Below, piece by piece: positions 36,254 through 54,695 of a stretch of 64,000 nt of DNA. The notes beneath the pieces are model-generated. The model saw nothing but the letters and a program-made list of their open reading frames with translations, was not told where the DNA came from and did no database searches. How positions within the stretch are numbered: position 1 is the first letter of the stretch; each line of letters opens with the position of its first letter. A program made the position numbers and the translations under genes. Origin of the DNA: an uncultured Bacteriovoracaceae bacterium (GTDB taxonomy: Bacteria; Bdellovibrionota; UBA1018); NCBI GenBank assembly GCA_964563795.1, contig CAZLYB010000013.1, forward strand, positions 3,107-67,106, in the 5' to 3' direction.

Positions 36254-37380
36254 TGAAAAAGCTCAAGCTCGTCATCAGCGACTTTCACCTCTCGTGCGGC
36301 CGGTGGCTCAAGGATGGGCGAAGGAATCCCCTCGAGGACTTTCATCAGGATGAGAGATTTCGGGAGCTGCTCGAGCATTACAGCACGGGATCTTACGCGG
36401 ACTGGGAAGTCGAGCTCGTCATCAATGGCGATTTCTTTGACCCCCTGGCGGTTCTTCCCATGACGGAGAACGGGAAAGTCGTCATCCTCGATTACCCTGA
36501 GGAAGTCGAGGAAGCGAGCGCCGTGACCAAATTCAAGCTGATCGCCTCGGGTCACCCCATCAGCATCAGGGCACTCGAGGCCTTTTTGGCGCGAGGCAAG
36601 AGCATCACTTTTCGATGGGGAAACCATGACGCGGCGATTCTTTGGCCGGCCGTTCAGATATTCCTAAGAGAACTGCTCCATCCGCCGCGGGCTGAGCAAT
36701 TGGCCTTCCAAAAAGACCCGTATCTCTTCGACCGCATCTGCATCGATCACGGGCATCAGCACGAAATCTTCAACCAATTTGACACTCAGCGCATCTTCAT
36801 CGAGAGAAAGATCAAGGGGGCCAAGAAAACGATCTTGAACCTTCCCTTCGGGAGCTTCTTCGTCTTCGGCTTCATCAGCCGCATCAAGCTCGAAAAACCC
36901 TTTATCACTTACGTCCAACCGCTTCGCAGCTACATCAAGCTCTCGATCTTCATGAATCCTTTATTTTTTATAGTAAATGGATTTAAAGTATCCTGGTTCT
37001 TCTTCAAGATGCGCCTGATCAAGCACCCCATGAGGTTCTCCCGGATCAGAAAAACATTCTTACTGCTGCTTGAAGCGCTCCACCGCCCCTCGCTCGAGAA
37101 GGTCGCCGAGGAGATCTTCAGTTCCCCGGAAGCGGACGCGCTGGGTTATGACACGCTCATCATGGGGCACAATCATCAAGCCATGGTCCGCGTTTTCCCG
37201 GGTGGCAAGCAATACATCAATACGGGCACTTGGACGCCGCTCACGAGCCTCGAGATGTCGACGCTGGGCCATCGCGTCCTACGCACTTACGCGCTGATTG
37301 AATACTTGGATTCAGGCGCCCCACGCTGCAGCCTCAAAGTGTGGAACGGGGAGCCCCGTTCCAACGAGGACTTCAATTAG
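36253..37380 (+). CDS. Metallophosphoesterase (calcineurin-like)
   Basis: The GDFFD and GNHD motifs are present. The ATG at 36253 overlaps the carboxyltransferase stop; the tracked 480-aa ORF is an upstream over-extension. Confidence 0.55.
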   Translation: MKKLKLVISDFHLSCGRWLKDGRRNPLEDFHQDERFRELLEHYSTGSYADWEVELVINGDFFDPLAVLPMTENGKVVILDYPEEVEEASAVTKFKLIASGHPISIRALEAFLARGKSITFRWGNHDAAILWPAVQIFLRELLHPPRAEQLAFQKDPYLFDRICIDHGHQHEIFNQFDTQRIFIERKIKGAKKTILNLPFGSFFVFGFISRIKLEKPFITYVQPLRSYIKLSIFMNPLFFIVNGFKVSWFFFKMRLIKHPMRFSRIRKTFLLLLEALHRPSLEKVAEEIFSSPEADALGYDTLIMGHNHQAMVRVFPGGKQYINTGTWTPLTSLEMSTLGHRVLRTYALIEYLDSGAPRCSLKVWNGEPRSNEDFN

Positions 37381-37667
37381 GGCGTTGACTTGATCGGGAC
37401 GGTCGTATCTGTCACGCCGGGCGTCAGATCCAGCGCAGGGGGCTTGATATTCGAGGGATCAATCGGAACCGGTACGGGTTTCAGAGCCCTTTTTTCCGCA
37501 TCCACGACGGGCAGCCCCGCTGGCACTCTTTTGAGGGTCGTGTTCAGGCTCGGGCAATCCGGATTGCCCGAATTCTCAAATCCCGAGGCTCGACCCGCCG
37601 AGAAAGCGAGACCCGCGAAGAGGGTTAAACCTAGCATCAGTTTCTTGTTCTTCAGATTCATAAACAC
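37377..37667 (-). CDS. Small secreted Pro-rich protein (96 aa)
   Basis: Signal peptide MFMNLKNKKLMLGLTLFAGLAFSA. It is the last gene of the minus-strand tad transcript. Confidence 0.35.
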   Translation of the reverse strand: MFMNLKNKKLMLGLTLFAGLAFSAGRASGFENSGNPDCPSLNTTLKRVPAGLPVVDAEKRALKPVPVPIDPSNIKPPALDLTPGVTDTTVPIKSTP

Positions 37668-37686
37668 CTCTTAAGTTAAATCATTC

Positions 37687-39369
37687 TTAAAAAGACAGGC
37701 TGACCCCGGCTGGCCGGACGATCTCCAGGAGATTTTGAAAGGCCGTGAACACTTGCGAGGCGACTTTCCTGCCCGCGGAGCTCTCGATCTTCTTCACTTC
37801 GCCGCTGTTCGTGTAGCTCATGGTGATCGTGCCTAAGTTCTCGTACTTGATCTGGGTCGGTTTGGAATTCTCGTCGTACTTGAAATCCATGCGGCGCTTC
37901 GCATTGTCGACCATGGTCTTGATGAGGCCATTGGGGAAGTAAAGCAACCGGACCGCTTTTTTCTCGGAATTTTCAGCGAAAATCATGTTCCCGCTGCCGT
38001 CATACTGGAAGTTCGACCACTGGGTCTGCCTCTTCGAGGCGCGATCCTGCCGCGTGACTCTCTTCACCTTGCCCACCTTGGCATCGTAGGAAAGCTCGGT
38101 GAGCTCAGTCGGGGTGGTCTTGCGGGTCAAATGGCCCTTCGCATCGTAGTCAAACGTGGTTTCTTCGCCTTCTTTCTTGATCGAAACCGGCAGGCCATGA
38201 CTTTCATTGTAAGTGGTCTCGGTCTTTTCCCCGTCGAGCGTGGCGATCAGCTTGTACTGCCACTCCTCCCCGTCCGCGCGCCTTTTGTTGAAGTACTCGT
38301 ACTGGGCGGAAGAGAGCTTGGCTCCCTCCTTGCTCTTCACGTTGACGGCGACGGTGTAATGATTCTTGTCGGAAGAATCGTACTGATAGGAATACTCGGT
38401 CAAGGTCCCATCCCGCTCCTTCACGGTTTTCACGTTCTCGTTCTTATCCACACCGTAGTAGGAGATTTGCAGGGTCGTTTTGTCCGCGTAGCCGATCTCA
38501 TTCATGTTGCGATTCTTGTCGTATTTGTACGAATAGGCGTTTCCGTCAACGTCCTTGCTGTACGTCAGCTCCCCCACGGCCGAATATTGGAAGGAAGCCA
38601 CTTTTTTGTTCTCTCCCTCGATCCTCTCAAGCAAACCCTGCTTATTGTAGGAAAGGAACATCTTGCGGTTGAAGTTATCCACGATCTTGGCGATACGACC
38701 GTCCTTGGAGTAAGTCAGGTCGATCGCATTCTTGTTCCGATCGGAGACTTTGACCAGTTTTCCCTGCTCATTGAAGCGCTCGACTTTGCCGCTCTCAAAA
38801 ACGCGGATGTACCCGCCCGCGACTTTGGTGATGTACTGGGGGCTGAACCGGATGGATTGGAGCTGAACCCCATTGGCCAAGGCGCGCGGCTTCAGGCGCC
38901 CGCTTTGCACGAGTTTTTCCCATTCCCTGCCCCTGAACGAAGCATCCGCTTTCAACTGAACCTTGTATTTCTTGAATTGGTCCGCCGAACCGCTGATGAG
39001 GTTCGCCGCCCTGGCCCCGTTGGCAATCTCCTCCACGGCGCGATCCAAATCCGCCTGGTTGAAATTTCCGGGGCTGAATCGATTCTCGGCGCCGCCGCCG
39101 TACTCATGGACGGTGACGCTCCCATCGGCCGCCACTTTCAGGAAAACCTCGAATTCATTGCCCCATCCCCACCCGAAGATGCCCTTGAAGGAGGTGGAGG
39201 CCTTGGCGTTGTACACCCGTTCGATCTTGGGGTCGAACCCGCCTGGATACACAATATCCGTATAACCTATGAAAAAATTTCCGTTCTTCAAGCTCACGTT
39301 CGCGCGCGCGGCTTGCGCATATAAACCGATCGTCCCCATCGTCAAAAGAATGACGGCTTTCGTTCTCAT
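37687..39369 (-). CDS. YD/RHS-repeat-containing secreted protein
   Basis: A signal peptide, then about 12 degenerate YD repeats (…LTYSKDGRI…, …YDKNRN…, …YDAKGHL…, …YDGSGNM…). There is no obvious C-terminal toxin domain, and the protein ends with Phe. Confidence 0.5.
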   Translation of the reverse strand: MRTKAVILLTMGTIGLYAQAARANVSLKNGNFFIGYTDIVYPGGFDPKIERVYNAKASTSFKGIFGWGWGNEFEVFLKVAADGSVTVHEYGGGAENRFSPGNFNQADLDRAVEEIANGARAANLISGSADQFKKYKVQLKADASFRGREWEKLVQSGRLKPRALANGVQLQSIRFSPQYITKVAGGYIRVFESGKVERFNEQGKLVKVSDRNKNAIDLTYSKDGRIAKIVDNFNRKMFLSYNKQGLLERIEGENKKVASFQYSAVGELTYSKDVDGNAYSYKYDKNRNMNEIGYADKTTLQISYYGVDKNENVKTVKERDGTLTEYSYQYDSSDKNHYTVAVNVKSKEGAKLSSAQYEYFNKRRADGEEWQYKLIATLDGEKTETTYNESHGLPVSIKKEGEETTFDYDAKGHLTRKTTPTELTELSYDAKVGKVKRVTRQDRASKRQTQWSNFQYDGSGNMIFAENSEKKAVRLLYFPNGLIKTMVDNAKRRMDFKYDENSKPTQIKYENLGTITMSYTNSGEVKKIESSAGRKVASQVFTAFQNLLEIVRPAGVSLSF

Positions 39370-39401
39370 GATTGCTCCCCTCACATGGCCTTCCTATAAG
39401 A

Positions 39402-40268
39402 CTATACGTCAATTTTGATGATTTTCATGATGACAAAAAAACCGACCGCCTCCAAGGCGATGATCAGGAGGATGATGAGCCACCCCAGGAACGTGGTAAA
39501 CAAAGGCTGCATAAACTCCGGATCTGTTTGGTAAAAAATGACTCCCAAGACCGGGGGGATCGCCATCACGAAAACGCCCTGGTAAAAGCCCTGCGCGGTC
39601 AGGGCGGCGATCTTGCTCTCCACCTTGATCCTTTCCCGGATCGTGGTCACGATCGTGTCGAAAGTCTCGGCCAAGTTCCCACCGGTCTCCTTGAGGATGT
39701 TGATCGAAGTCACGAACATCTCGACGTCGTCGGACTTGATCCTCCTCCCCAGGTTGCTGAAAGCCTCCTCGAGGGGAACGCCGAGCTTGTTCTGGTTGAG
39801 GATCAAGTTGAACTCCTGCTGGATGGGATTGCTCATTTCTTGCGTCACCAATCCCAGGGACTGCACGATGGAAAGGCCCGACTTCAGCCCGTTGGACATC
39901 AAGCTCAAGGCATCCACCATTTGCAGGATGAACTTTCGGATTCTCCTCCGATAAAGCCAATCCACGATCGGCTTCGGGGCCTTCCAAAACACGATGACGG
40001 TCAAGCTCGAGAAGACCAAGCCCGGGATCCAATTCGGAAGAAAGGCGATCATCACTAAAAAAGCCGGCCCAAGGCTCAGCGCCAGCATGATCTGCGCGAT
40101 CTTGTGGGCGGGGATATCGACGAACATGAGGCTCAGGCGATCCACCACGTAATCCCGGGTCCCCACCGACTGAAACTTCAGCCAATCCAGGAACCTTTTG
40201 TTGTAGTGGTAGGAAATCCCGAAAACCGCCGCTCCGATACTCAGGATTCCGATCACCTTGAAGAACAT
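39402..40268 (-). CDS. tadB: Tad/Flp pilus assembly inner-membrane protein TadB (T2SS-F domain)
   Basis: The T2SS-F-domain pattern …ALSLMSNGLKSGLSIVQSLGLV…GVPLEEAFSNLGRR…GGNLAETFD…IRER… is present, with three TM helices. Confidence 0.75.
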   Translation of the reverse strand: MFFKVIGILSIGAAVFGISYHYNKRFLDWLKFQSVGTRDYVVDRLSLMFVDIPAHKIAQIMLALSLGPAFLVMIAFLPNWIPGLVFSSLTVIVFWKAPKPIVDWLYRRRIRKFILQMVDALSLMSNGLKSGLSIVQSLGLVTQEMSNPIQQEFNLILNQNKLGVPLEEAFSNLGRRIKSDDVEMFVTSINILKETGGNLAETFDTIVTTIRERIKVESKIAALTAQGFYQGVFVMAIPPVLGVIFYQTDPEFMQPLFTTFLGWLIILLIIALEAVGFFVIMKIIKIDV

Positions 40269-40274
40269 CGCCCG

Positions 40275-42452
40275 TCACCCCGCCTTCGCCGTGAAAAGGC
40301 TTCGCGAGATCTTCATTCCCTTGGCTTCCATCTCTTCCACGAACTTCGGAACGAAACCGGTTGGGATCACGCGCCCGATGACTTTTCGCTTTTTATCGAG
40401 GCCTTCCTGCTTGAATACGAAAATATCTTGAAGGCTCACCACCTCGCCCTGAATCCCCACGACCTCGGTGATGTGGGTGATTTTTCGGCTTCCGTCCGAG
40501 AGGCGGCTTTGCTGAATGATGATCCCCACCGCTGAAGCGATGTTCTCGCGGATCGCTTTGGCCGGTAGGCCCAACCCCGCCATCATCACGAGCGTCTCGA
40601 GACGCGCGATGGCTTCGCGGGGATTGTTCGCGTGAAGCGTGGTGAGCGATCCCGAGTGACCGGTGTTCATCGCTTGCAACATATCGAGGGCTTCCTGGCC
40701 GCGGCACTCCCCAACCACGATTCGGTCGGGACGCATTCTCAGGCAGCTTTTCACCAAATCCCGGATGCTCACTTCGCCCTCGCCCTCGATGTTCTTGGGC
40801 CGCGACTCAAGGCGCACCACATGCTCTTGCCCAAGCTGAAGCTCGGCTGAATCCTCAACCGTGATGATTCGCTCAGTGGCGGGGATGAAATTTGAAAGCA
40901 CGTTGAGCAAGGTCGTTTTCCCGGAGCCCGTTCCTCCGGAGACCAGGACATTCAACTTCGCCTCGACGCAGCATCTCAGGAAATCCGCGATCTCGGGAGT
41001 CATCGAGCCAAAGGAGATCAGATCCTTGGCTTCCATTCTTTTTTTGGGGAACTTTCGGATCGTGATGGTCGGGCCCCGGAGCGACAAGGGGGGGATGATG
41101 ATGTGAACACGCGATCCATCGCGCAAACGCGCGTCGACGTACGGCACTTTTTCATCAACGCGGCGCCCGAGCGGCGTCACGATTCGCTCGATCACCGTCA
41201 TCATCTGCTGCTCGCTGGAGAAGGTGACTTTCGAAAGCTGGGGTTTTCCGAGACGCTCGATGTAGATTTGATCCCGGGAATTGACCATGATTTCAGTCAC
41301 GCTCTCATCCGCAAGCAGATCCTCGAGCGGCCCGAGTCCCAGCGCCTCATCGAGGACTTCCTTCACCATCTGAGATTTGAGCTCTCGGCTATTCAGGAGG
41401 GACTCGGTGTCCTCGGCGCCAAGGACGTCGAGGATCGCTTTCTGCGTTTTCTCGCGCAAAACCGCCCTCTGCTTGGGATCGTTCGTGTCAGTATTGGTCC
41501 GCTTGAGGTCCATCTGCTCGACCAAGGCCTTGTGAACCCTCAGCTTCATCGCCGTCCAAGCGTCCAGCGGCGCGGACATGCTGCGATGGATCGGGTTGCC
41601 GTCGGATCGGGCTTGGCCAGATCCATCGGGGCTGGAGCTCGCGACTGCGGCCTGCGATTGCATCTTGGCGGCCACCCCGGTCGGCTTCTTGAGCTTGGCC
41701 AAACTCTCGAGCAGATTGGATTGCTGCATTTTTCGGACGATATCGTGATAAGCGCGCGCGACGGCGGTGTTCGGCGCGGCGATGCAAAGCGGAATGCTCT
41801 TCGCGAGCGAGCTTTCGCAAGTGGGGCCATCCTCGGGAATGGCGGCAAAAATCGACTTGCCCAAGTTTTTTTGAATCAGCTGGGGATTGATGATCGAGTT
41901 TTGGGAATATCGGTTCATGACCACTTGAACCATCTCGGGGGGGAAAAGCAGCTCCTGAATTTTTCCCAGCAGGCGCTTCGTCTGATTAATCACGATGATG
42001 TCGGCGGAGGTCACCACGTAGATGGCGCTCGCGAACTCGAATGCCTTAAGAGCCCATGGATCCGTCCCGCTCCCGCAATCCACGACGGTCCAGCTGAAGA
42101 CGTTGGTGACGGACTTCAAGAATCGTCCGAGCCCGTCCAAATCCAGGTCGCGCGCCACGATCGCGTCGCGGGGGGCGCCGATGTAACTGTAACCCGCCTG
42201 CGCGTTCACCATGAAGGGGGCGAGCGTCTTGGGATCCACCGGCCCCGGCGGCATCTTGCTCACGTCAATGATGCTCTTGGGGGGATTTTGATTCAAAATG
42301 ACGTTTTGATCGCCGAGGCTATTAAGGTCGAGATCAACGATCAATGGTCTTTGTTTAAATTCTTGGAGATAAGCGATGGCCAGGTTCGCGGCGAACACGC
42401 TTTTTCCGACCCCGCCTTTTCCGCCGACCACTGCGATGATATGCCCAGGCAT
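40275..42452 (-). CDS. Fusion of a CpaE/TadZ-like ParA/MinD ATPase domain and a CpaF/TadA secretion ATPase
   Basis: The N-terminus carries the deviant Walker [15 protein letters not shown] of ParA/MinD/CpaE. The C-terminal half carries the VirB11/CpaF core [15 protein letters not shown]…RLESRP…VGECRG with His- and Asp-boxes. It is one uninterrupted 725-aa ORF. Confidence 0.8.
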
Positions 42453-42469
42453 CGGTTACTTGCTCCCCA

Positions 42470-44206
42470 TCACTTCATCTTGACCCGGAAATTCCGCTTG
42501 AGGTCTTCCGTCCCATCCGAGGCGTTCTCGATGATTTGCGGAGTGATGAAAATCACGAATTGGGATTTCGACTTCCTGTAGTTCTTGGACCGCAGCAGCG
42601 TGAAGAGCGGATCGGTCCCTTCGCTGAACGACCCGGGGCTCGGATCATCCTTATTGAAGTCCGTGCCCACCGTGGTCGCGCTCACTCCGGCGATCGCGGC
42701 GCTTTCCGCTGATTTGACGTAAAGCTTGGTATCCACCCGGTGAGTCGCGGTGATGGGTTGCGTCCCTGACGCCGGAGTCCGACCCACGAGGTTGGTTTGG
42801 TTCACCTTGATATCGACTTGGATGTCCTCGCTTTGCCCCAGGATCGTGGGCGTCACGCCGAGCTCCAGCCCCACGTCCTGCTTGCCCGCCGAGACCTGCC
42901 CATTGGCTCCCTGGATCAAGAAAGGGAATTGGGTTCCCTCAAACAGGCTCGCGGCTTGGCCGCTTCTGACGACCAAGGTCCCGGTTTTCAAAATCCTGGC
43001 ATAGCCCGCGGCCTGGGCGCTTTGAAGCTTCGGCAATAAGCTTGAGATGGTCGCGCTGAACGAAACTCCCCCGCTTCCGGTTGTGGTGGTCGTTGCTCCG
43101 GCCGTCTGGCCGTTGCTGAAAGTGACCTCGGGACCGCTGGAGGTGAACCCCGGTTGCCATTTAAAGCCAAAGAGCCGGTTGTAATCCTTGGAAAGCTCCA
43201 CGAAGTAAGCCGTGATTCGAACCAGCTTATCCTGTTTTTTCGGGGGAGGCGCGTTCACGATGATGAAAGTCTGCACCAGATTCCGCCCGGGAAGCCGCGT
43301 CGCCTGGCCCTCCGCCTCGAACCGGCCCAAGGGATTGGCGGGTTTGATTTCAGGGAGATAGAGCAGCGCGATGTTCTTCGCACGGTTGGCTTGATCAATG
43401 GTATCGACGGTCCCTTCCAAGAAGATCAGTCCATTGACCACTCTCGTCTTCACGCCGGGGGCGAACACATTGATGTCTTCTTGAATTTTTTTGGCCAGGA
43501 ATTGAAGCGCCAGCGGCGAGAGCGTCGTGAGATTCATGATGAAATCCCCGTAGGCCTTGTCCCCCACGACGGTCAGAAGGCGAGCGTAGTCATTGGGGAC
43601 GAGGATCTCCCCTTCCAAAATGACTTTAGGCCCCACGATGCGGATGTCCAAACCTTCCACGTCGCGAAGCAAAGAGCGTACTTCACCAGCCACTCGAAGC
43701 AGATTGGAACCCGTGATCCGGGCGTTGAAAATCAGGCGAATCGTCCCATCCGCGTCACGTACCGTGATGTTTGTGTCCCCCGGTTTCAAGGGCTTGAAAA
43801 CGATCTGGCGCTTTTGACCGATTTTTACGAGCGTAGTCGCGAGCAGGGTGGGATTTCCGATGGTGATCCCGCTGACTTCGGGACTCACGTCAAAATTGAG
43901 ATCGACGGCTTTGTCTTCCCCCGAAGTCAGCAGCAGCCTCCTGCGATCCGCATTCGCCTCCGACTCATCATTGGTCAATCGGGATCGCCCCACGGATCTC
44001 GCACGGCGGGAGAATCGGGGCAGGGATTGAACAGGAACGGATTTAACTTCGGGCAAAGGCTGCGACTGCGGCATGGGAGCGGGCGGGACTTGAGGCGCGG
44101 GCTCCGTCACTAAGGACCCCCCGGATGGCGGATCCTCGGCGTGGAGCTCGCCGCCCGGCGCGGCGATCAGCAGCAAGAAGATCGGGAGAAGATTCCATCG
44201 TTTCAT
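42470..44206 (-). CDS. cpaC: Tad secretin CpaC/RcpA
   Basis: A signal peptide and the secretin C-domain …FVIFITPQII… . The protein is 578 aa. Confidence 0.8.
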   Translation of the reverse strand: MKRWNLLPIFLLLIAAPGGELHAEDPPSGGSLVTEPAPQVPPAPMPQSQPLPEVKSVPVQSLPRFSRRARSVGRSRLTNDESEANADRRRLLLTSGEDKAVDLNFDVSPEVSGITIGNPTLLATTLVKIGQKRQIVFKPLKPGDTNITVRDADGTIRLIFNARITGSNLLRVAGEVRSLLRDVEGLDIRIVGPKVILEGEILVPNDYARLLTVVGDKAYGDFIMNLTTLSPLALQFLAKKIQEDINVFAPGVKTRVVNGLIFLEGTVDTIDQANRAKNIALLYLPEIKPANPLGRFEAEGQATRLPGRNLVQTFIIVNAPPPKKQDKLVRITAYFVELSKDYNRLFGFKWQPGFTSSGPEVTFSNGQTAGATTTTTGSGGVSFSATISSLLPKLQSAQAAGYARILKTGTLVVRSGQAASLFEGTQFPFLIQGANGQVSAGKQDVGLELGVTPTILGQSEDIQVDIKVNQTNLVGRTPASGTQPITATHRVDTKLYVKSAESAAIAGVSATTVGTDFNKDDPSPGSFSEGTDPLFTLLRSKNYRKSKSQFVIFITPQIIENASDGTEDLKRNFRVKMK

Positions 44207-44209
44207 TCT

Positions 44210-47222: not shown

Positions 47223-47236
47223 GATGCTCCCTCGTT

Positions 47237-47470
47237 TTATTGATCCAACGGATTCGTGGCATCAATCATATTTTTTTCGGTTCGATCGAGGATCGTGCTC
47301 AGGGAAGAGCCGAATTTCGCGCGGAACTTCAGCGCGACCATCACGACGATGGCCAAAATCAAGATGTACTCGGTCGTCGTCTGGCCTTCTTCATCAGACC
47401 AAAACGCGGAGAGTCGCTTTTTCCATGCTGCGAGCGCCATAGATACCCCTGAATTCATGCCTCTACCCAA
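47237..47470 (-). CDS. flp: Flp-family pilin (second copy)
   Basis: EEGQTTTEYILILAIVVMVAL carries the Flp motif. It lies 14 nt upstream of the first copy and is preceded by an AT-rich 76-nt intergenic region. Confidence 0.75.
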   Translation of the reverse strand: MGRGMNSGVSMALAAWKKRLSAFWSDEEGQTTTEYILILAIVVMVALKFRAKFGSSLSTILDRTEKNMIDATNPLDQ

Positions 47471-47546
47471 GTATCGGAACCCAAGCCGAAAAACATGATT
47501 TCTTCCTTCATTATATTATATTTATTTTATATAAATAAATCCAACT

Positions 47547-48284
47547 TCAGAAAAAGATCAATGTTGCCCAGAGGTTATCCTCGCGGCCTTGCTCGCCCTG
47601 GAGCTCATTCAAAGCCTCCAAAGCCGCTCCTCGCCCCATGAAGAATGCTTCCCAAAGCTTCTGACGCTCCCCCTCCAAAAGCCCGTCCGTGTGGAGGAAC
47701 AACCCATCCCCGGAATGGATCCGGCACTCCAGGATCTCGGGCTCCAAATCTTCATTGAGGCCCAGGGCCGCCAAAGGGACGCCCTCCTCGCACAGCGTCG
47801 CTTCTTTCTTGAAGGGATCGAGTAATCGCCCATAGCTTCTGGGCGTCGTCAGCTCCGCCATCCCGCTCTGCCTGAAAATCCAAGCCTGGCAGGAGCCGAT
47901 GGAACCCAGGGAGAGCTGATCCCCGTCCAAGAAGCCCGCCACCAAGGATGCGCCCGCCTTTTCATGAACGCTTCGATTCCTGTTCTTCGACAGAAGCTTG
48001 CGGTTGGAGTGAACAAGCGCGTTGAAAAGCACGTTCCCTGCGAGTGAATAATAATGGCGAATCACGAAAGGCAGCGTCGCCTCGCGATCCCCTACCTCCT
48101 TCACAAGAAACGCCTGCACCGCCTCGCACGCCAGCTTGGAAGCGGCCGATCCCGCAGATGGGCCTCCGAATCCATCAGCCACCGCGAAAACTCCTCTTTC
48201 GGCCGAAGCCCATCCGAAATCCTCCTGAGCGGGCCTCTGGCCAACCGCCGAGCAATGGGCGATCTCGGAAATCAATCGGCTCAT
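47547..48284 (-). CDS. PP2C-family Ser/Thr protein phosphatase
   Basis: The motifs QRPAQEDFGW, VADGFGG and LHTDGL follow PP2C metal-binding motifs 1, 2 and 8. Confidence 0.7.
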   Translation of the reverse strand: MSRLISEIAHCSAVGQRPAQEDFGWASAERGVFAVADGFGGPSAGSAASKLACEAVQAFLVKEVGDREATLPFVIRHYYSLAGNVLFNALVHSNRKLLSKNRNRSVHEKAGASLVAGFLDGDQLSLGSIGSCQAWIFRQSGMAELTTPRSYGRLLDPFKKEATLCEEGVPLAALGLNEDLEPEILECRIHSGDGLFLHTDGLLEGERQKLWEAFFMGRGAALEALNELQGEQGREDNLWATLIFF

Positions 48285-50665
48285 TCCGCCTCCCCTTCTT
48301 CAATGACGGCGCTCGCGGGATAGCGCGAGAGCTTGCGCGAGGCGCGCTCATGATAAAGGTCATCCTTGGGGACGAGCGCCAGGATCTCCTTGTATTTTTT
48401 CTGAGCCGTCGAGAAATCACTGTAGCTCTCCGCCAGGACCGCCTCCGTGTAAACCCCCTTGGCCCTCTCATGAAGCGCAGAACGGGTTCGCTCCACGCCC
48501 TGTTGGCTCGCCGAGAAGGAGGGATCGATGATGCTGGCCCGCTGATACAGCTGATAGGCTTGCGGGATGTTTCCCGAGTCCTCATTCTGTTTCGCGGCTT
48601 GCACGATCGGATCCCGCTTGGACTGGATCGCCTGCAAGGAGGCTTGAATCAACGCCTTGGAATGCCTCAGTAGCTTCGCGTCGCTTGCGCCGATTTCCTT
48701 AATTTTATAAAATCTCGAAATCGCGTCGCGGTATCTGCCCCGCCGCCTCAAGCTGAGGCCTTCCTTCAGCAAGGCCCACCCCTTTGCGTTGATTTCTCTT
48801 TGGACTTCCCGCTCTTGCTCGAGCAGTCTTCGCTTGGTCTCATCCGCTTCGATTTCTTGCCGCCATTGAGCGACCAAGGCGTTCTCCGGATCAAGCGCCA
48901 GGATCTGGCCGAAAATCTCCTTGGCGATGTCGTACTGCCGCTTGGACATCTTCAATGAGGCTTCTTCGGTTAATTGCCCCACTTTGACTTTGATGCGCTC
49001 TTCCTCTTCCTTCTTTCGAGCCTCTTCAAGCTGAGCCTCCCTTTTTTGACGGCCTTCCTGGGCGTATCGCTCGATCTCGCGGGAGTCCTTGTAGTCGGGG
49101 ACGAGCTTGAAAATTTTCTCGATCTCATAGAGGGCTCGGTCGAAATCACCGGCCTTGTAATATTCAAACGCCCGATCATGCTGCTCCTGGACGAATTTTT
49201 TTTGCTCTGCGGTCAGCGACTCAAAGGTCGCTTGCTTCGCGGCATCAGCCGCGTTCTCGGCGGACGGCTTCTTTTGAGGCGCATCGATGACATCCTCATC
49301 CCCCGGTCCGAAATACCAGATGAAGGCGCAAGTCAGGGCGATCACCAGATATTGCTTCGGCTTGGAAAGATTCCTGAATTTTTCGATCAATCCCTTGGGT
49401 TTTGCCTGCTCTTGCGGGGCTCCCACTCCGGTGATCCCTGCGATCGAAGAATCACCGACCGCCGCTGAAGAAAAAGGCAGCGCGGACGGCGGCGGCATCA
49501 TCGGCGAATGGTACGCGGCATTGAAATTCTCAAAAGCCGAATCCGCCTGGATTTCCTCCTCCTGAGGCAAAGAGACGAGCGCCGCCTCCTGCTTGAGGTA
49601 ATCCTTGCTATGGGCCTGGAATTCAAACTCGACGTTTCCAATTCGGATGCGGTCGCCGGCCGAGAGCTCCTGCTCCTGAATTTTGACTTGATTCACGTAG
49701 GTTCCGTTGGAGGAACCAAGATCCTTGATCAAAAACCGGTGCTGATTCCTGAGGATGACCGTATTTTTTCGGGAAGCCTTTTTATCGTTCAATACGATAT
49801 CGCACGTCTTCCCACGCCCCAGGCTCACTTCATCCTTGATGATTTCATACTCAGTGACGTTCGCGGTGCCTGGGTCAAAAAGCAGCTTCGAATCGACTCT
49901 CGCCACTGAGACGACTTGGGTATGCTCGCCCGTGGGGGCATCCAGAGCTGGAACTTCAGGCGCCTCCAAATCAATCCCCGTTCCCTCCTCGTGCGCGTCG
50001 GCGGAAGCCTCGGCGAGGAGCGGGGGATCCTCAAGCGTGAGACCCGGGACTTCATTCGTCTTTGAATCTTCTTGGGAATCTTCTTGGGAATCTTCTTGGG
50101 AATTTTCGGGAGAAGCCGTGATCTCCTCCTGAACAGGGGCGTTCTCCAGAGGCGCGGGGGAGTCCTCAAAAAAGGCCACCGGCTGCGTCGCTTCGGGATC
50201 TTCGGATTTCAGCGGTCCTGATTCAAACGGCAACGGCTCGCTGGGCGTCTCCAGCGGGGCTTCGGCGGCGACTTCCTGAAAAGGCGAAGTGATCTCGCCG
50301 GAATCCGGATGATCCGTCGCGGGAGCAGCTGATTCAACGGCGGATTCCGGCGCCGGCTCGGAGAACGGGGAGGCTTCGAGCGAAAGCCTCGCCAAATAGG
50401 GGCCGATCGCGATGACATCGCCTGACTTCAAAATGGCCTTCGTGCACTCCTGCCCATTGATGGTCAGAGGCGCGAATTCGCTCTGGCGCTCCACTTGAAT
50501 TCCGCCAGTGACGCGGCTAAAGCGGGCGTGTTCCCGCGAGATCGCGCGATCATCCAGCCGGATCACGCAGCCTTCGGCCCTGCCCACCAGGACATCGCCT
50601 TCAATCGGCACGCTCTTGATCTGCTCGCCATCCTTTAAGATGGTCAGAATCGCGGCCGCGCCCAT
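48281..50665 (-). CDS. Membrane-anchored protein with two FHA domains, an acidic repeat linker and a C-terminal TPR/coiled-coil region
   Basis: FHA-1 at the N-terminus (…VGRAEGCVIRLDDRAISREHARF…). FHA-2 lies around residues 260-340 (GRGKTCDIVLNDKKASRKNTVI…LGSSNGTYVN). One TM segment (LVIALTCAFIWYF) is followed by TPR-like repeats. Confidence 0.7.
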   Translation of the reverse strand: MGAAAILTILKDGEQIKSVPIEGDVLVGRAEGCVIRLDDRAISREHARFSRVTGGIQVERQSEFAPLTINGQECTKAILKSGDVIAIGPYLARLSLEASPFSEPAPESAVESAAPATDHPDSGEITSPFQEVAAEAPLETPSEPLPFESGPLKSEDPEATQPVAFFEDSPAPLENAPVQEEITASPENSQEDSQEDSQEDSKTNEVPGLTLEDPPLLAEASADAHEEGTGIDLEAPEVPALDAPTGEHTQVVSVARVDSKLLFDPGTANVTEYEIIKDEVSLGRGKTCDIVLNDKKASRKNTVILRNQHRFLIKDLGSSNGTYVNQVKIQEQELSAGDRIRIGNVEFEFQAHSKDYLKQEAALVSLPQEEEIQADSAFENFNAAYHSPMMPPPSALPFSSAAVGDSSIAGITGVGAPQEQAKPKGLIEKFRNLSKPKQYLVIALTCAFIWYFGPGDEDVIDAPQKKPSAENAADAAKQATFESLTAEQKKFVQEQHDRAFEYYKAGDFDRALYEIEKIFKLVPDYKDSREIERYAQEGRQKREAQLEEARKKEEEERIKVKVGQLTEEASLKMSKRQYDIAKEIFGQILALDPENALVAQWRQEIEADETKRRLLEQEREVQREINAKGWALLKEGLSLRRRGRYRDAISRFYKIKEIGASDAKLLRHSKALIQASLQAIQSKRDPIVQAAKQNEDSGNIPQAYQLYQRASIIDPSFSASQQGVERTRSALHERAKGVYTEAVLAESYSDFSTAQKKYKEILALVPKDDLYHERASRKLSRYPASAVIEEGEAE
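50064..50107. repeat. 12-bp tandem repeat (GAATCTTCTTGG x3 plus a partial copy) encoding SQEDSQEDSQED
   Basis: Seen directly. It is in frame within the FHA protein's acidic linker. Confidence 0.7.
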
Positions 50666-51648
50666 CAGCCCGTCCCTTCAGGCGCTTGCATCAGCTCCAC
50701 CGTTTTTTGAAGCTGGTCCTTCGCCTCACGAAAAGGAGTGCTCTCGGGTTCGCGGTAAAGCAGCCTCATCACCGCCTCGTAGTGGCCTTTCGCTTCTTTC
50801 AATTTGCCGCTTTGGAGGCCTTTTTTCCCGCGCTCGAGGTGGAACTTCACTTCGTCCTCGATCATCTTATTGCAGTTTTGAAGATACAAAGTGGCGAGCC
50901 GGTGGCCCGGGGCAACTTGAAGAACCGTTTCAAACTGAGTCTTGGCCCGCAGATAATTTTTTTCCCGAAACTCGCGAAACCCCCCTTTGAAGAACATTTC
51001 AGCGGAACGAGTGGCTTCTGGCGTGGCCACGCTTGGGGGCAAGAAAGAGGCTAAATCCCGGATTGGCGGATTTTCCGGCCGGGAACGCGATTTTTTGGGC
51101 CCTCCCGGGGAGAGGACAAAGTAAAAAACCAAGGCGACTGCGGCCAGACCGCCTAATTTGAAAAGCCGGGAGCGTGAACCCGATGCCCCCGAGTTTTTTC
51201 CCAAGGACTGGACGTGTTTTCGAGCGGTCTCCAGCTGAGCATGCCCCAAAAGAATTTTCGAGACTTCCCTGGAGGGGGCGGTCAAAAGGCTGGTCGCGGA
51301 TTGGTTTGAAACGAGGAATTCGAGCACCGTTTCGCCCAAATGGATCGTATCGCCCAGGTTGAGGACCGCTTCCCGGGCGGATTTCCCATTATGCAAAATT
51401 CCATTCGCGCTCCCCGCATCGCGCACCGACCAGCTTCCCTGAGCCGTTGAAATGAGCTCGGCGTGCTGCCGCGAAGCTTTCAAATCCAAAAGGACGACGT
51501 CATTTTCTTCCCCGCGGCCAATGGTCGCGCGTGGAGACGTCAGGACATAGAGCGCGCCCTGGTCGGGACCTTGGGCGACCTTCAAGCGCGCAAGTTCCCC
51601 GTTTTGCCGAGGAACCTGAGCCGTCCTGAATTTCAAGGCCCCCTTCAT
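50665..51648 (-). CDS. FHA-domain membrane protein with C-terminal TPR repeats
   Basis: FHA segment …ATIGRGEENDVVLLDLKASRQHAEL…GSANGILHNG… and a TM segment LGGLAAVALVFYFVL, followed by TPR-like repeats. The start is placed at MKGALKF (51648), 2 nt after the upstream stop. Confidence 0.65.
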   Translation of the reverse strand: MKGALKFRTAQVPRQNGELARLKVAQGPDQGALYVLTSPRATIGRGEENDVVLLDLKASRQHAELISTAQGSWSVRDAGSANGILHNGKSAREAVLNLGDTIHLGETVLEFLVSNQSATSLLTAPSREVSKILLGHAQLETARKHVQSLGKNSGASGSRSRLFKLGGLAAVALVFYFVLSPGGPKKSRSRPENPPIRDLASFLPPSVATPEATRSAEMFFKGGFREFREKNYLRAKTQFETVLQVAPGHRLATLYLQNCNKMIEDEVKFHLERGKKGLQSGKLKEAKGHYEAVMRLLYREPESTPFREAKDQLQKTVELMQAPEGTG

Positions 51649-51650
51649 CT

Positions 51651-53285
51651 TCAACTCATTTCCGTCCGTTTGGAGGCGGCAAGCAAGTACGCCCTCGCGG
51701 CCCCGCCCCACGGCCCGAAAGCGGCGCAGGACACTCGATAGCTCACCCCGGAAAACTCATAATCCTCGCCAATCGGATCCCCTCCCACCGAGGCGCGCTC
51801 GAAAAGATCTTTCACGAATGAAGCGAACGCCTGGTCACGGGCCACGGAAGAAAGCTCCTGTCCCACCGCTTCATCCGCCCGGATCCCGCTGATCTCCTCC
51901 ATCACTGAATTGGAGTAAAAAACCTTCCTCTCCCCGTCGCAGATCACGAGCGCGAAAAGACCGAGCTCGCCGAGCATTTTTGCGGGCGCAACGATCTCTT
52001 CCAGTGAAGGCTCAGAGTTTCCCGCCGCTGAGCTCAGCTCTCCTGAACCGTTTGAGCGGGGAATCCTTTGAAGGGCGGAATTCACTCGATCGTAAATCGC
52101 GTTCATCTCCTCAAACCGGAACTCCCGCGTCACTTGAGTCAGATCGCCCTTGAGGGCTTTGTCGAGGTCTTCACCCAGCACCGTCATGGGTTTGAGGGTG
52201 AGGCGGTACAAAATCAGCAAAAGCAAGGCCGCAAACAATCCCACCACGATGAATGTCTCGGAGTAAGCGAGCCCCACTTCGCCCATCGAGGGAACGCTCA
52301 AAGCGCTGTCGATCGACACCACGGCCATCGCCACGACGACGTTGCTTCCCGTGATCGCGCTCAGCACTTTGACGGGCTCGATGGCGACGACGGTGTCGGA
52401 ACCCGCGATTTTCACGATGCCGGTTTCACGCCCTGAGCGGAAAAGCTCCCGCGCCTTCACGGCCTCAACCGCCTCGACTCCGGAGGTGAGGTACTGATTG
52501 AACTTCGAGCCCGGCGCCAAGATCCTGTTCTCGAGGTCAACCAAGAGCGACATCCGCACGCCTTCGCCGTAGCCCACACTCCCGATTTCCGTTTTGGTCT
52601 CCATTTGAGCCGACAAGGCCTGCGTGTTGCGTTCAGCGATCTGCTTCGCCATGGCGCGGGCGCGCTTCCCTACTTCACGCAAGATCGCATCTTGATTCGA
52701 CTGAACGAGCGGGTAAACCGAGACGAATAAATTCAGCAAGACGAATATTCCGAAAATCGCGCCCACTAAAAATCGCCATTCTGTCTTGAAATTGAGCTGG
52801 TAAAAAAATGGCATGAATTTTCGGTCAAAAAACCACGTCAGCCGCCCCTTGAGATCTTTGGGGACTTCCTCAGCAGCCGGGACCTCGGACAAAGGCAAGG
52901 AAGACTCCCCTCCGGTCGCAAGAAGCGCGGAGGGATGCTGAATGACCGGAGCGAGGGGAAGCCCCGCCTGAAACCCCTGATTCGAGAAGTTCGGGGCGGA
53001 CGGTCGCACCAGCTGAAGCACGTACTCGCCGACGCTGATACGGTCGCCCGCTTGAATCGGCTTTTTGCGGGTCAACGCGCCGTTGATGAAGGTTCCATTC
53101 GAGCTGTTTTGATCTTGAATCTCGATTTCATCGCCGTTTACGACCAGGACGCAGTGGCGCTTGGAAACTTTAGCGGACGGAAGGACCACGACGTTGTCTG
53201 AGGCCCTGCCGATGGAATTCTCACCCTCGCTGATTTCCCAGCTCGTGCCGCGCTTCGGTCCGGAGATGACTCTTAGTTTATACAC
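51651..53285 (-). CDS. FHA-domain membrane protein with a large extracytoplasmic domain
   Basis: N-terminal FHA segment (GRASDNVVVLPSAKVSKRHCVL…SSNGTFING), a TM segment FLVGAIFGIFVLLNLFV, and a roughly 330-aa C-terminal domain. Confidence 0.65.
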   Translation of the reverse strand: MYKLRVISGPKRGTSWEISEGENSIGRASDNVVVLPSAKVSKRHCVLVVNGDEIEIQDQNSSNGTFINGALTRKKPIQAGDRISVGEYVLQLVRPSAPNFSNQGFQAGLPLAPVIQHPSALLATGGESSLPLSEVPAAEEVPKDLKGRLTWFFDRKFMPFFYQLNFKTEWRFLVGAIFGIFVLLNLFVSVYPLVQSNQDAILREVGKRARAMAKQIAERNTQALSAQMETKTEIGSVGYGEGVRMSLLVDLENRILAPGSKFNQYLTSGVEAVEAVKARELFRSGRETGIVKIAGSDTVVAIEPVKVLSAITGSNVVVAMAVVSIDSALSVPSMGEVGLAYSETFIVVGLFAALLLLILYRLTLKPMTVLGEDLDKALKGDLTQVTREFRFEEMNAIYDRVNSALQRIPRSNGSGELSSAAGNSEPSLEEIVAPAKMLGELGLFALVICDGERKVFYSNSVMEEISGIRADEAVGQELSSVARDQAFASFVKDLFERASVGGDPIGEDYEFSGVSYRVSCAAFGPWGGAARAYLLAASKRTEMS

Positions 53286-53650
53286 AGCTCATCCCCATCC
53301 CGGATCGAGCACCGCTCGAGAGTACCCACCGGGAGCTCGAAAGTATCCGTCGCTTTGCGATCGCGAAGCGGGAGAACTTTCCAAGGGCGCACGTCGGAAT
53401 GCGCGGAAGTCACCACCCACTTCAGCGCGCCGGACGACGAACGTTCACGGCGTGCGAAAACGACGTCGATCGAGACGCTCATGAACCACATGTGAATGTC
53501 GTTGCAGCGAGGAAACCACATTCCCTCACCCTCCCTCAGGCTCGTTCTCCCGATCAGGCCTTTGAGCCGGTCGAAAAAACACTTTGCCACATGACACTTA
53601 TCGGCAATAACCAATTGATTTTTTAGGGAATACAGCTGGATGGTCTTCAT
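53273..53650 (-). CDS. DUF192-domain protein
   Basis: …GLIGRTSLREGEGMWFPRCNDIHMWFMSVSIDVVF… matches the DUF192/COG1430 core. The start is placed at MKTIQLY. Confidence 0.5.
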   Translation of the reverse strand: MKTIQLYSLKNQLVIADKCHVAKCFFDRLKGLIGRTSLREGEGMWFPRCNDIHMWFMSVSIDVVFARRERSSSGALKWVVTSAHSDVRPWKVLPLRDRKATDTFELPVGTLERCSIRDGDELCIN

Positions 53651-53682
53651 ACGGCCCATTCTCCCTTGAATTCCCAAGAAAA

Positions 53683-54600
53683 TCACTGGCCCGGAGAGAT
53701 CATGCTGAGCACAAAAGGCCCAAAAATCATCAACATGACGGCGGGCAGGATGAAAAGCACCAAGGGCAAAATGACCTTTTGGGACGCTGCGGCACCTGCT
53801 TTTTCTGCGCGGAGCATCCTTTGGCTCCGAATTTGATCGGATTGCTGACGCAGGATGCGGCCGATCGAGGCCCCCATCTGATCCGCAGAAATCAGGATCG
53901 CGATGAACGAATTGATCTCGGTCATCCCAATCCGGGTCCCCATTTCACGCAGCGCTTCCTGCCGGGAAGAACCCACCTTGATTTCCTTGAGGAGCTGGGC
54001 GAACTCGTCCACGAGGGGACTGGGATTGGCCTTTTCGACGACCTTCCCGATCGCCCCGATGAAATCAAGGCCCGCTTCCGTGGAAAGCGCCAAAAGATCG
54101 ACGATGAACGGCATGGACTTCAAGATTTGGCGCTGCCGCTTTTGAATCCGGGAGCGCATCCACAAGTCGGGATAGAACCAACCGAGGACCCCGGAGACCA
54201 AGATCAGAAACAGCGAGAGATCGAGGAACCCGCCCGCTTTGAGGATTCCCCCGATGATCGGGAAAAAAACAATATTAAATAATTTAAATGCAATAAAATC
54301 ATCGGGATCGAACTCCTCGCTGAGCCCGGCCGAGACGAGGCGGCGCTGGTAATAAGCGCGGAAGTAATCCCAGAAAGCCTTGCCTCGGACGATCGGCGAA
54401 ACGTACTGGGTGAAGAAAGGGCGTGTGTATTTGACGAGCGGGTTCGAGGCCTTGCGGTCACGTTGATCCCCCAGATTGTCCGCCGCGGCGCGGCTTTCGC
54501 CTTCTTTGAGGAACTCGCGCGCGACGATGTAGACCGCCACGGCGATCAAGCCATAGGCGAACCAGACGACGAATTGACCGCGTTCCAAGATCGCTGACAT
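53683..54600 (-). CDS. tadC: Tad/Flp pilus assembly inner-membrane protein TadC (T2SS-F domain)
   Basis: T2SS-F-domain pattern PFIVDLLALSTEAGLDFIGAIGKV…SSRQEALREMGTRIGMTEI…, with three TM helices. Confidence 0.7.
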   Translation of the reverse strand: MSAILERGQFVVWFAYGLIAVAVYIVAREFLKEGESRAAADNLGDQRDRKASNPLVKYTRPFFTQYVSPIVRGKAFWDYFRAYYQRRLVSAGLSEEFDPDDFIAFKLFNIVFFPIIGGILKAGGFLDLSLFLILVSGVLGWFYPDLWMRSRIQKRQRQILKSMPFIVDLLALSTEAGLDFIGAIGKVVEKANPSPLVDEFAQLLKEIKVGSSRQEALREMGTRIGMTEINSFIAILISADQMGASIGRILRQQSDQIRSQRMLRAEKAGAAASQKVILPLVLFILPAVMLMIFGPFVLSMISPGQ

Positions 54601-54695
54601 TTTTGAGATAGATCCTCTGCAGTCCTATCGGAAAAAAAGAGATCTACTTTTAATTCATGTTCAATTTACGGCGAGCTTCCATTAGAATTAAAATC

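Follow-up and report, generated by a model that had tools for sequence, protein, structure and literature searches.

A probable predator-type Tad pilus locus with a membrane FHA/PP2C module in an uncultured member of the Bdellovibrionota

What kind of machine is encoded by a Tad pilus locus that carries three FHA-domain proteins and a PP2C-type protein phosphatase, and has such a gene set been seen before? This question is raised by positions 37377-54600 of a stretch of DNA from an uncultured Bacteriovoracaceae bacterium (contig CAZLYB010000013.1; the whole stretch of 64,000 nucleotides that was analyzed is called the window here). Our analysis indicates that this region is very probably a complete Tad (type IVc, "Kil-like") pilus locus of the predator type, belonging to an uncultured member of the Bdellovibrionota. 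It is not a new system, but a further example of a gene set that has already been described in Bdellovibrio bacteriovorus. As judged from the sequence, the points that distinguish it are its contiguous layout, a TadV-like peptidase and a PP2C site that appears to be catalytically intact.

The listing of open reading frames (ORFs) and the Pfam scans reveal a tightly packed run of 18 ORFs on the minus strand, from 54600 down to 37377 (Table 1). A preliminary description of this DNA, made without database searches, had counted 17 consecutive genes; the consecutive run is correct, the count is not, and the genes listed there in fact add up to 18. Neighboring ORFs overlap or lie at most 19 nt apart, with the sole exception of a 76-nt AT-rich gap (47547 / 47470). 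All features that define a Tad system are present, namely Flp-type prepilins, a TadA/CpaF ATPase, TadB together with TadC, a secretin, RcpC/CpaB and a prepilin peptidase of the A24 type, and the Pfam profile searches uphold the Tad/Flp identity as well as the FHA, PP2C and other domain calls that had been made before. TadD (the TPR lipoprotein pilotin), TadG and RcpB are non-core Tad components, and no such Pfam family was found in the locus ORFs or in any window ORF of at least 150 aa. The earlier observation that TadD, TadG and a separate TadZ are absent and that the ATPase is a fusion protein is confirmed, with TadZ being the N-terminal domain of TadZA. That the TPR-bearing FHA proteins replace TadD, as had also been proposed, is speculation. 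No RNA element was detected in the locus with Rfam, and the window as a whole contains two tRNAs.

The closest homologs of the window proteins, among the matches listed, all stem from Bdellovibrionota. In a tblastn comparison with the 18 window proteins against related loci (numbered L001, L002 and so on), the 17-gene order from tadC to the RHS gene was found entire in L001 and, as far as these loci reach, in L002 and L004-L006, while L003 and L007 end after flp1. Two contigs around homologs of FHA1 likewise show the same order from the T2SSF gene (in L002 from the DUF192 gene) to the RHS gene. In 12 loci, the same module begins with an ortholog of tadC (42-68% identity), and the DUF192 gene follows tadC in all 14 of the related loci. 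The arrangement is not a result of chance, because the same order recurs in independent genomes; the GC content of the locus also matches that of its flanks.

The six-gene module tadC-DUF192-FHA3-FHA2-FHA1-PP2C also occurs alone, in metagenome-assembled genomes (MAGs) of Bacteriovoracaceae and in Halobacteriovorax (L008-L010, L012 and L049), where the other tad genes do not lie within 10 kb of it; L011 breaks off ahead of the PP2C position. One of these loci, L009, belongs to the cultured Halobacteriovorax sp. CON-3, a member of a predatory genus. Since the six genes stay together where the other tad genes lie elsewhere, the block from tadC to PP2C is an evolutionarily stable unit, and in the window this block is joined to the rest of the machine.

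In B. bacteriovorus, the genes Bd0470-Bd0475 are annotated as TadC, a conserved hypothetical protein, three FHA proteins (Bd0472-Bd0474) and the serine-phosphatase-like Bd0475 (Duncan et al., supplementary tables). Published Tn-seq data give a predation fitness of 0.002-0.03 for all six of them, a severe defect (Duncan et al.). Bd0470, the TadC protein, is needed for predation, and the transposon mutant Bd0474::tn attaches to its prey without prey killing or rounding (Duncan et al.). Going by the position of the genes, a disruption of the FHA and PP2C genes with scoring of predation would in effect already have been done in B. bacteriovorus. In every feature of gene order and domain content that was compared, the locus matches the predatory Tad system of the B. 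bacteriovorus type. The preliminary description had pointed to a link with the Kil system of Myxococcus and with Bdellovibrio-like predators. This link is borne out by the work of Seef et al. (2021) and by the Bdellovibrionota origin of the closest homologs listed.

What do the FHA proteins look like? Hydropathy across 14-15 orthologs reveals conserved transmembrane (TM) segments, two in FHA3, one in FHA2 and one in FHA1. The three proteins are therefore predicted to sit in the inner membrane, with the FHA domains in the cytoplasm and the C-terminal parts in the periplasm. For FHA3, the predicted layout is a cytoplasmic FHA domain, TM1, a periplasmic alpha/beta sensor-like domain, TM2, a helical linker and a PAS domain. 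The AlphaFold2 (AF2) model of this protein (predicted local distance difference test score, pLDDT, 82) has the same order, with a disordered linker between the FHA domain and a long first TM helix and with a periplasmic part that is PAS/Cache-like. The best Foldseek match of the model in the PDB is the WalK sensor kinase model 9a5d_A (E 2.7e-12, 400 columns), and on the strength of the model FHA3 appears to be a WalK-like sensor-kinase input module without the kinase core. Pfam does not call a HAMP domain in FHA3, and the linker after TM2 can be termed "HAMP-like" only from sequence reading and the superposition with WalK. Most FHA3 orthologs have two TM segments, and the residues GR, S-K-H and SSNGT are conserved among them. 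The FHA domain of FHA3 superimposes best on the phosphothreonine (pThr) readers GarA, OdhI, FhaA and Bdellovibrio DgcB, with YscD and PscD behind these.

FHA2 is predicted to consist of a cytoplasmic FHA domain, one TM segment and a conserved TPR-like C-terminal part; the single TM segment is found in 15 of 15 orthologs and the residues GR, SRxH and NG are conserved. FHA1 is larger and has an FHA domain, an acidic disordered linker of 150 residues, another FHA domain, a weak TM helix and a long TPR solenoid. In its AF2 model, the FHA domains comprise residues 1-97 and 255-360, followed by a helix (426-452) and by the solenoid (486-792), which is modeled with a pLDDT above 90. The TM segment is present in most FHA1 orthologs and is weak in the window protein. 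There are about 96 full-length homologs of FHA1, the best with 43-47% identity, and those with a name all belong to Bdellovibrionota (MAGs of Oligoflexia and Bdellovibrionales included). In each of the four FHA domains, the pThr-contacting residues GR, SxxH and NG reach a conservation of at least 93% among the 14-15 orthologs, apart from the histidine in the two domains of FHA1. Threonine 249 of FHA1 (T249) lies 13-14 residues ahead of the second FHA domain, in the context D-x-x-T-K/R, and is unchanged in all 21 aligned homologs; FHA1 of Bacteriovoracaceae has a threonine within one or two positions of it. T249 is a candidate phospho-acceptor.

The phosphatase matches the NCBIfam family Stp1/IreP with an E-value of 2.9e-19, which is under the curated cut-off. 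On reading the sequence, all four metal-binding motifs (QED, DGFGG, TDG and EDN) are intact, and the same holds for the Bacteriovoracaceae orthologs. In the closest relatives with the full cluster, L001-L007, the aspartates of motif VIII (DG) and motif XI (DN) are lost and motifs I and II are kept (L001:12316-13065, L002:12262-13029, L003:7433-8185, L004:6086-6841, and the genes at the PP2C position in L005, L006 and L007). In a set of 46 full-length closest cluster representatives (E <= 1e-30), all four catalytic aspartates are kept in 25 and not in the remaining 21 (~46%). This suggests that the PP2C protein has repeatedly decayed into pseudophosphatases. As for the DUF192 protein, a sequence search of the PDB gave no match, and we found no literature on DUF192 in relation to pili.

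Some features were seen at the PP2C position and beyond it in individual relatives. In the "Proteobacteria bacterium" MAG locus L022, the order is tadC-DUF192-FHA-FHA-FHA and the place of PP2C is taken by a 189-aa ORF (L022:7078-7647), for which no similarity to the PP2C family is detectable. In the stand-alone modules, the gene directly after PP2C encodes a receiver domain, an acidic low-complexity region of about 270 residues and, at the C-terminus, a conserved stretch of about 55 residues (L009:13920-15260, L010:6707-7912, L012:13778-15007, L049:14185-15753 and L008:~15115-15276). This architecture presumably resembles that of the polarity hub RomR. No such ORF was found in the window.

How is the locus likely to be transcribed? 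The preliminary description had placed the FHA/PP2C module inside the tad genes. This does not hold, as the module forms a 5' unit together with tadC and is separated by a promoter-like gap from the unit that runs from flp to tadB. There are probably two transcription units, one from tadC to PP2C and the other from flp1 to the small ORF, each behind a promoter box of the sigma-28 type. These boxes were spotted by eye and by comparison with the relatives. The CCGATA box upstream of tadC lies at a distance of 26 nt from the gene, and CCGAT[AG] is found 20-40 nt upstream of tadC in L001, L005, L006 and L022. The element in the gap, TTTT-N12-CCGATA, occurs once in the window, where 0.11 occurrences are expected, and is also present upstream of flp1 in L001-L004 and L006. 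Both boxes match the FliA attack-phase consensus; the attack-phase promoter consensus of B. bacteriovorus is TTAAG-N16-CCGATA (Karunker et al. 2013), and the flp1/TAD promoter of this organism is FliA-dependent (Avidan et al. 2017). The called TTG start of flp1 (47470) overlaps the -10 box, and the true start is probably an ATG at 47456 or 47438. The latter would leave a leader of 19 residues before G/QTTTEY.

The second unit encodes the pilus proper. All five pilin-like ORFs have, on sequence reading, the prepilin motif G/Qxxx-E-[YF]. The Flp1_like match of flp2 is, like that of flp1, under the Pfam cut-off. The small pilin-like ORF at 46158..46469 is conserved in L001, L002, L004 and L005, the TadE-like pilin has orthologs with 43-50% identity, and the third minor pilin candidate (45042..45617) is conserved in four loci. 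Both catalytic aspartate motifs of A24 peptidases (ITDL...IVN and GAGDVK) can be read in the TadV-like protein. For cpaB/rcpC, the ORF as called overlaps the upstream gene by 122 nt, and the true start is probably Met39. TadZA matches CpaF with 423 bits in a comparison to solved structures, and its residues 3-242 match ParA/MinD proteins. This N-terminal part has the motif KGGVGKS and is without a receiver-like domain. The fusion is kept at 74-79% identity in L001, L002 and L004-L006.

Downstream of tadB, the RHS gene and the small secreted ORF agree in position and domain type with Bd0109 and Bd0108. Bd0109 is an RHS/YD protein whose gene shares a transcript with bd0108, bd0110 (tadB) and bd0111 (the ATPase). 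It has been characterized as a regulator of the pilus that resides in the periplasm and binds the small protein Bd0108 (Capeness et al. 2013). The window protein (565 aa) has at least 120 homologs with 55-65% identity and a nearly constant length of about 560 aa each. Its conservation exceeds that of the FHA, PP2C, pilin and peptidase proteins; TadZA, TadB and TadC are at least as conserved. In the PDB it shows only partial matches to Rhs shells, and it has about one third of the size of a toxin-carrying Rhs cocoon. Small ORFs with a signal peptide occupy the position of the last gene in L083 and L084 too, with almost no sequence conservation, and the small ORFs are not alignable among the relatives. 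The small ORF seems to be conserved only in position and in character (signal peptide, low-complexity tail), and in this it resembles the intrinsically disordered Bd0108.

Table 1. Features of the tad locus in the window, in order of transcription
Feature	Position	Strand	Evidence and remarks
tadC upstream region	54601..54656	-	sigma-28 (FliA)-type -10 box CCGATA at 54631-54626; TTAAAAG ~16 nt upstream
tadC, inner-membrane platform protein	53683..54600	-	Pfam T2SSF, E 9e-17; Bd0470 position
DUF192 protein	53273..53686	-	Pfam DUF192, E 2.6e-13; Bd0471 position
FHA3	51651..53285	-	Pfam FHA, E 8e-17, and weak PAS match; Bd0472 position
FHA2	50665..51711	-	Pfam FHA, E 6e-14; Bd0473 position
FHA1	48281..50665	-	Pfam two FHA domains (E 1.6e-29) and TPR; Bd0474 position
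PP2C-type Ser/Thr phosphatase	47547..48284	-	Pfam PP2C_2, E 2.7e-11; Bd0475 position
PP2C-flp1 gap, AT-rich	47471..47546	-	sigma-28-type promoter-like element, -10 box CCGATA at 47477-47472
flp1, Flp-type prepilin	47237..47470	-	Pfam Flp1_like, E 1.8e-7, under cut-off; motif G/QTTTEY
flp2, Flp-type prepilin	46998..47222	-	Pfam Class_IIIsignal and Flp1_like matches; motif G/QGTVEY
tadV-like prepilin peptidase (A24)	46445..47050	-	Pfam Peptidase_A24, E 3.7e-12
Small pilin-like protein	46158..46469	-	no Pfam match; motif G/QAITEY and N-terminal hydrophobic helix
TadE-like minor pilin	45607..46161	-	Pfam TadE, E 2.6e-4, just under cut-off; motif G/QSTVEF
Minor pilin-like protein	45042..45617	-	no Pfam or NCBIfam match; motif G/QSVIEF
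cpaB/rcpC	44210..45163	-	Pfam RcpC, E 2.4e-22, and SAF
cpaC/rcpA secretin	42470..44206	-	Pfam Secretin, E 2e-17; weak T2SS-T3SS_pil_N and BON matches
tadZA fusion ATPase	40275..42452	-	Pfam CbiA, residues 6-214; T2SSE, residues 371-648 (E 9.6e-66)
tadB, second platform protein	39402..40268	-	Pfam T2SSF, E 3.4e-18; Bd0110 position
Short YD/RHS-repeat protein with signal peptide	37687..39384	-	Pfam RHS_repeat and DUF6531; Bd0109 position
Small secreted low-complexity protein, 96 aa	37377..37667	-	signal-peptide-like N-terminus, Pro-rich tail; no Pfam match

How might the two units work together? The second unit would build the fiber and its conduit from the Flp pilins, minor pilins, TadV-type peptidase, CpaB, secretin, TadZA and TadB, with the ParA/MinD half of TadZA positioning the machine. 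The RHS protein and the small secreted protein would probably tune the dynamics of the pilus, a role that has been proposed for Bd0109 and Bd0108. The first unit would supply TadC as the other platform protein, together with a membrane-embedded control or scaffold module made of the FHA proteins. Cytoplasmic FHA domains might read phosphothreonine, and the cytoplasmic PP2C protein might erase the phosphate marks. An unlinked Hanks-type kinase would phosphorylate a component, possibly the T249 segment of FHA1. After contact with prey, contacts between FHA domains and pThr could then assemble or license the TadB/TadC/TadZA platform, and PP2C would reset it. The phospho-switch, its target, its kinase and the predatory lifestyle of the organism are what we infer from the findings above. 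The post-attachment block of the Bd0474 mutant would fit a licensing step downstream of prey contact.

One can take this further and regard the six-gene unit as an ancient, phylum-wide transmembrane device for licensing. FHA3 would be a former WalK-type kinase that has lost its kinase core and gained an FHA domain, and that reports an envelope or prey-contact signal by pThr docking and not by phosphotransfer. Around TadC, FHA1 and FHA2 would build a TPR scaffold that spans the periplasm, with T249 as the switch and with PP2C as a resetting enzyme that has repeatedly decayed. We put this forward as a tentative idea, which is possible, though not the outcome that we would expect. If true, it would explain why Bd0474 mutants attach without going further.

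Several points weigh against the interpretation of the locus as a predator-type Tad system under phospho-control. The organism is known only from this contig, and it is by gene order, domain content and published descriptions that its genes are paired with Bd0470-Bd0475 and Bd0108-Bd0119. Generic scans of the locus for sigma-70 promoters and terminators gave results at chance level. No sequence similarity was detected between the small last ORF and its positional counterparts. Many lineages evidently do without phosphatase activity, seeing that catalytic aspartates are lost in ~46% of the closest relatives of the PP2C protein. Finally, a phospho-relay would be without a writer in cis, because no Pkinase domain was detected with Pfam in any ORF of at least 150 aa in the 64-kb window and no Ser/Thr kinase was found beside the Halobacteriovorax module (L009).

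Some of these points lead directly to the main rival explanation, according to which the FHA proteins are phosphorylation-independent parts of the basal body, in the manner of an SctD-like ring or alignment complex, and stand in for TadD/TadG/RcpB or for a connector of the PilMNOP type, with PP2C being a relic or a non-catalytic adaptor. All three proteins share the cytoplasmic FHA-TM-periplasmic topology of SctD, the Yop-YscD_cpl profile is matched, the Myxococcus Kil FHA proteins have the same FHA-TM architecture, there is no linked kinase, and the PP2C genes are retained although catalytic aspartates are missing from nearly half of the closest relatives. However, a purely structural role is difficult to combine with the conservation of the pThr-contacting Arg, Ser, His and Asn, which are conserved to at least 93% nearly throughout, lineages with a degenerate PP2C included. 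The FHA domain of FHA3 is nearest to true pThr readers, ahead of YscD and PscD, its sensor-kinase-like input module suggests signaling over pure scaffolding, and the phosphatase site is intact in the window and in the Bacteriovoracaceae branch. Overall, we consider the structural explanation doubtful.

Many lineages of Bdellovibrionota/Oligoflexia are without a demonstrated predatory habit. The locus might then encode an ordinary adhesive pilus for surface attachment or biofilm formation in a non-predatory member of the phylum, where FHA/PP2C couples assembly to the cell cycle or to polarity. The Tad core is standard, the ATPase is equally close to Caulobacter CpaF (423 bits) and to the KilF-like proteins of Myxococcus, the organism is uncultured, and the Pfam scans of the window found no predation-specific enzyme encoded nearby. 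Yet the same module with the same gene order is genetically needed for predation in B. bacteriovorus, the module is present in cultured predators of the genus Halobacteriovorax (L009), and both the pair of RHS and small-protein genes of the hit-locus type and the FliA-type boxes are hallmarks of Bdellovibrio and like organisms, which makes this explanation unlikely. Even less probable is a Tad-derived secretion device similar to type II secretion, with the YD/RHS protein as cargo or tip and the pilins as a short piston. It would account for the signal peptide of the RHS protein and for the fact that its gene, at 55-65% identity, is invariably the last large gene of the operon, and a type II secretion-like role has been raised for Kil (Seef et al. 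2021). A length of 565 aa falls far short of a closed Rhs cocoon, though, no toxin C-terminus or cleavage motif was noticed on reading the sequence, and the counterpart Bd0109 has been characterized as a pilus regulator. Moreover, Kil pili have been visualized in Myxococcus. A predator-type Tad pilus, with a module that probably reads phosphothreonine, thus remains the explanation that we prefer.

The neighborhood of the locus contributes little to its interpretation. According to Pfam, the flanking ORFs of at least 150 aa are housekeeping genes and comprise two acyl-CoA carboxylase sets, HMG-CoA lyase, enoyl-CoA hydratase, methylmalonyl-CoA mutase, a GH3 hydrolase, rhamnose biosynthesis genes and valyl-tRNA synthetase. 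The preliminary description had derived an argument for a predatory or contact-dependent lifestyle from an adjacent secreted phospholipase C and an Omp85-like protein. The supposed phospholipase (35938-37380) has only a sub-threshold match to Metallophos and no match in the PDB, the Omp85-like ORF (17950-19692) lies 18 kb away, and with housekeeping genes as the immediate flanks this argument fails. Horizontal transfer of the locus was considered and rejected, as its GC content equals that of the flanks and the GH3 gene upstream of the module is also found in L001 and L009; a methylmalonyl-CoA mutase gene likewise lies upstream of the module in L001.

Some further observations concern the surroundings. 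The pilus locus is flanked by paralogous sets of genes for a biotin-dependent acyl-CoA carboxylase (31857-36253 and 58183-61825; biotin carboxylase, biotinyl carrier and carboxyltransferase). One of these sets lies with HMG-CoA lyase and enoyl-CoA hydratase and looks like leucine catabolism, the other lies with methylmalonyl-CoA mutase and looks like propionate metabolism. The gene at 35938-37380 on the plus strand converges on the end of the locus. Its called GTG start lies about 300 nt inside the preceding carboxyltransferase gene, and the real protein probably has about 375 aa. Divergent from tadC is the ORF 54657-55487, with a family-less 242-aa gene at the same place in L001. It is one of six ORFs of 187-447 aa without a Pfam family at the thresholds used, the others being 16606-17949, 21572-22627, 22739-23929, 61889-62536 and 62544-63107. 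At 26329-28624, just after the tRNA at 26176-26247, a gene for a CheX-type chemotaxis phosphatase comes first and, about 400 nt further on, one for an HD_5 (HD-GYP-like) protein. Finally, a 156-aa ORF (2245-2715) encodes little beyond a FliG C-terminal domain; it adjoins a gene for an RDD-family membrane protein, with no other flagellar genes nearby.

Why does such a locus matter? For the step from prey contact to killing or invasion, the FHA-rich accessory genes of Kil/Tad systems are the favored, yet unstudied candidates. The window displays the Tad machine of Bdellovibrionota as one contiguous locus. Together with its relatives, it provides concrete hypotheses for Bd0471-Bd0475 of B. bacteriovorus, that is intact pThr pockets, a sensor-like FHA3, T249, and a PP2C protein that is intact or degenerate depending on the lineage.

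It is instructive to compare the locus with known systems that combine FHA domains or phosphorylation with a contact-dependent machine. SctD of type III secretion systems (T3SS; YscD/PrgH) has ring-building periplasmic motifs, whereas the window proteins have a PAS/Cache-like domain (FHA3) or TPR arrays (FHA1 and FHA2) in this place. SctD profiles match only the FHA domain of the window proteins, which would therefore not be homologs of SctD beyond this domain. With the H1 type VI secretion system (H1-T6SS) of Pseudomonas aeruginosa (PpkA/PppA/Fha1/TagQRST), the locus shares an envelope-sensing module, FHA scaffolds and a PP2C protein on a contact-dependent machine. In contrast to that pathway, the window is without a linked Hanks kinase, its FHA proteins are themselves membrane-spanning, the machine is a type IV filament system, and the phosphatase is degenerate in many relatives. 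Because of the missing linked kinase, the locus does not appear to be a phosphorylation pathway of the T6SS type.

The canonical Tad/Cpa systems (tad of Aggregatibacter, cpa of Caulobacter) have in common with the window the Flp prepilins with the motif GxxxxEY, a TadV-type peptidase, TadE/F-like pilins, RcpC/CpaB, the RcpA/CpaC secretin, the TadA/CpaF motor, and TadB with TadC. They differ in having a separate TadZ/CpaE with a receiver-like domain as well as TadD, TadG and RcpB, none of which are present in the window. Moreover, tadC of the window heads the locus together with the FHA/PP2C module, and canonical Tad loci are without such a module.

Closer is the Kil system of Myxococcus, which is Tad-like, rich in FHA proteins, and present in Myxococcales, Bdellovibrionales and Bradymonadales; it is encoded in the clusters MXAN_3102-3108 and MXAN_4648-4661 (Seef et al. 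2021, Herrou et al. 2025). Both systems are derived from Tad and have no TadD, TadG-like protein or RcpB at the locus. Bdellovibrionales fall into the Kil clade of a supermatrix tree of KilF/KilG/KilH/KilB, the FHA proteins are KilD, MXAN_4648, MXAN_4649 and MXAN_3104, KilF is a fusion of FHA with the ATPase, and an analogy with the threonine phosphorylation of T6SS has been drawn (Seef et al. 2021). For our comparisons, Myxococcaceae and Hyalangium MAG loci (L032, L039 and L079) served as stand-ins. In both systems several FHA genes lie beside the platform genes, with KilH (TadC) adjoining FHA and FHA/TPR genes, and the FHA-TM-TPR architecture occurs in both; the Myxococcus-type Kil FHA proteins examined have one strong TM segment. 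In profile comparisons with hhalign, the alignments of FHA1 and FHA2 to an MXAN_4648-like protein reach past the FHA domain into the TM and TPR parts and span 475 and 258 columns, respectively, although TPR repeats may align non-specifically and inflate these alignments. With a KilD-like protein, FHA1 aligns across both FHA domains. FHA3 matches Kil proteins through its FHA domain only, and no counterpart was found for it. A one-to-one orthology of the window FHA proteins with those of Kil was considered and rejected, as phmmer sees the FHA domain alone. The ATPases differ as well: KilF carries an FHA domain, whereas that of the window has the ParA/MinD domain at its N-terminus, and the KilF-like ORFs of Myxococcaceae, which do carry an FHA domain, match only residues 296-720 of TadZA. 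Kil is encoded in two clusters with a different gene order and the window has one locus, and neither PP2C, DUF192, the RHS protein nor a WalK-like FHA sensor was found in the Myxococcus-type loci examined. Kil further assembles at lateral sites of prey contact and works with a needle-less T3SS.

The closest known counterpart is the Tad system of B. bacteriovorus. There, the module Bd0470-Bd0475 is, by order and domains, identical to that of the window (TadC, small protein, three FHA proteins, PP2C-like protein). HD100 has an atypical TadZ-TadA fusion (TadZA) without a receiver-like domain, which binds RomR, the assembly of the system being polar and dependent on RomR, and its separate tadC locus has neighbor genes with TPR, FHA, PAS, PilZ and histidine kinase domains (Tesseur et al., July 2026 preprint). 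The window shares the fusion without a receiver-like domain, the FHA, TPR and PAS domains beside the tad genes, by position and domain type also the RHS and small secreted proteins after tadB, and the FliA-type promoter box upstream of flp1; unlike HD100, it is without tadG, PilZ and histidine-kinase neighbors. The tad loci of HD100 are reported to have no canonical TadV (Tesseur et al., July 2026 preprint), whereas the window encodes an A24 (TadV-like) peptidase with both catalytic motifs. In B. bacteriovorus HD100/109J, the tadC operon (Bd0470-Bd0475) lies apart from tad locus 1 (Bd0110-Bd0119) and the hit locus (Bd0108-Bd0109), whereas in the window the two units are contiguous.

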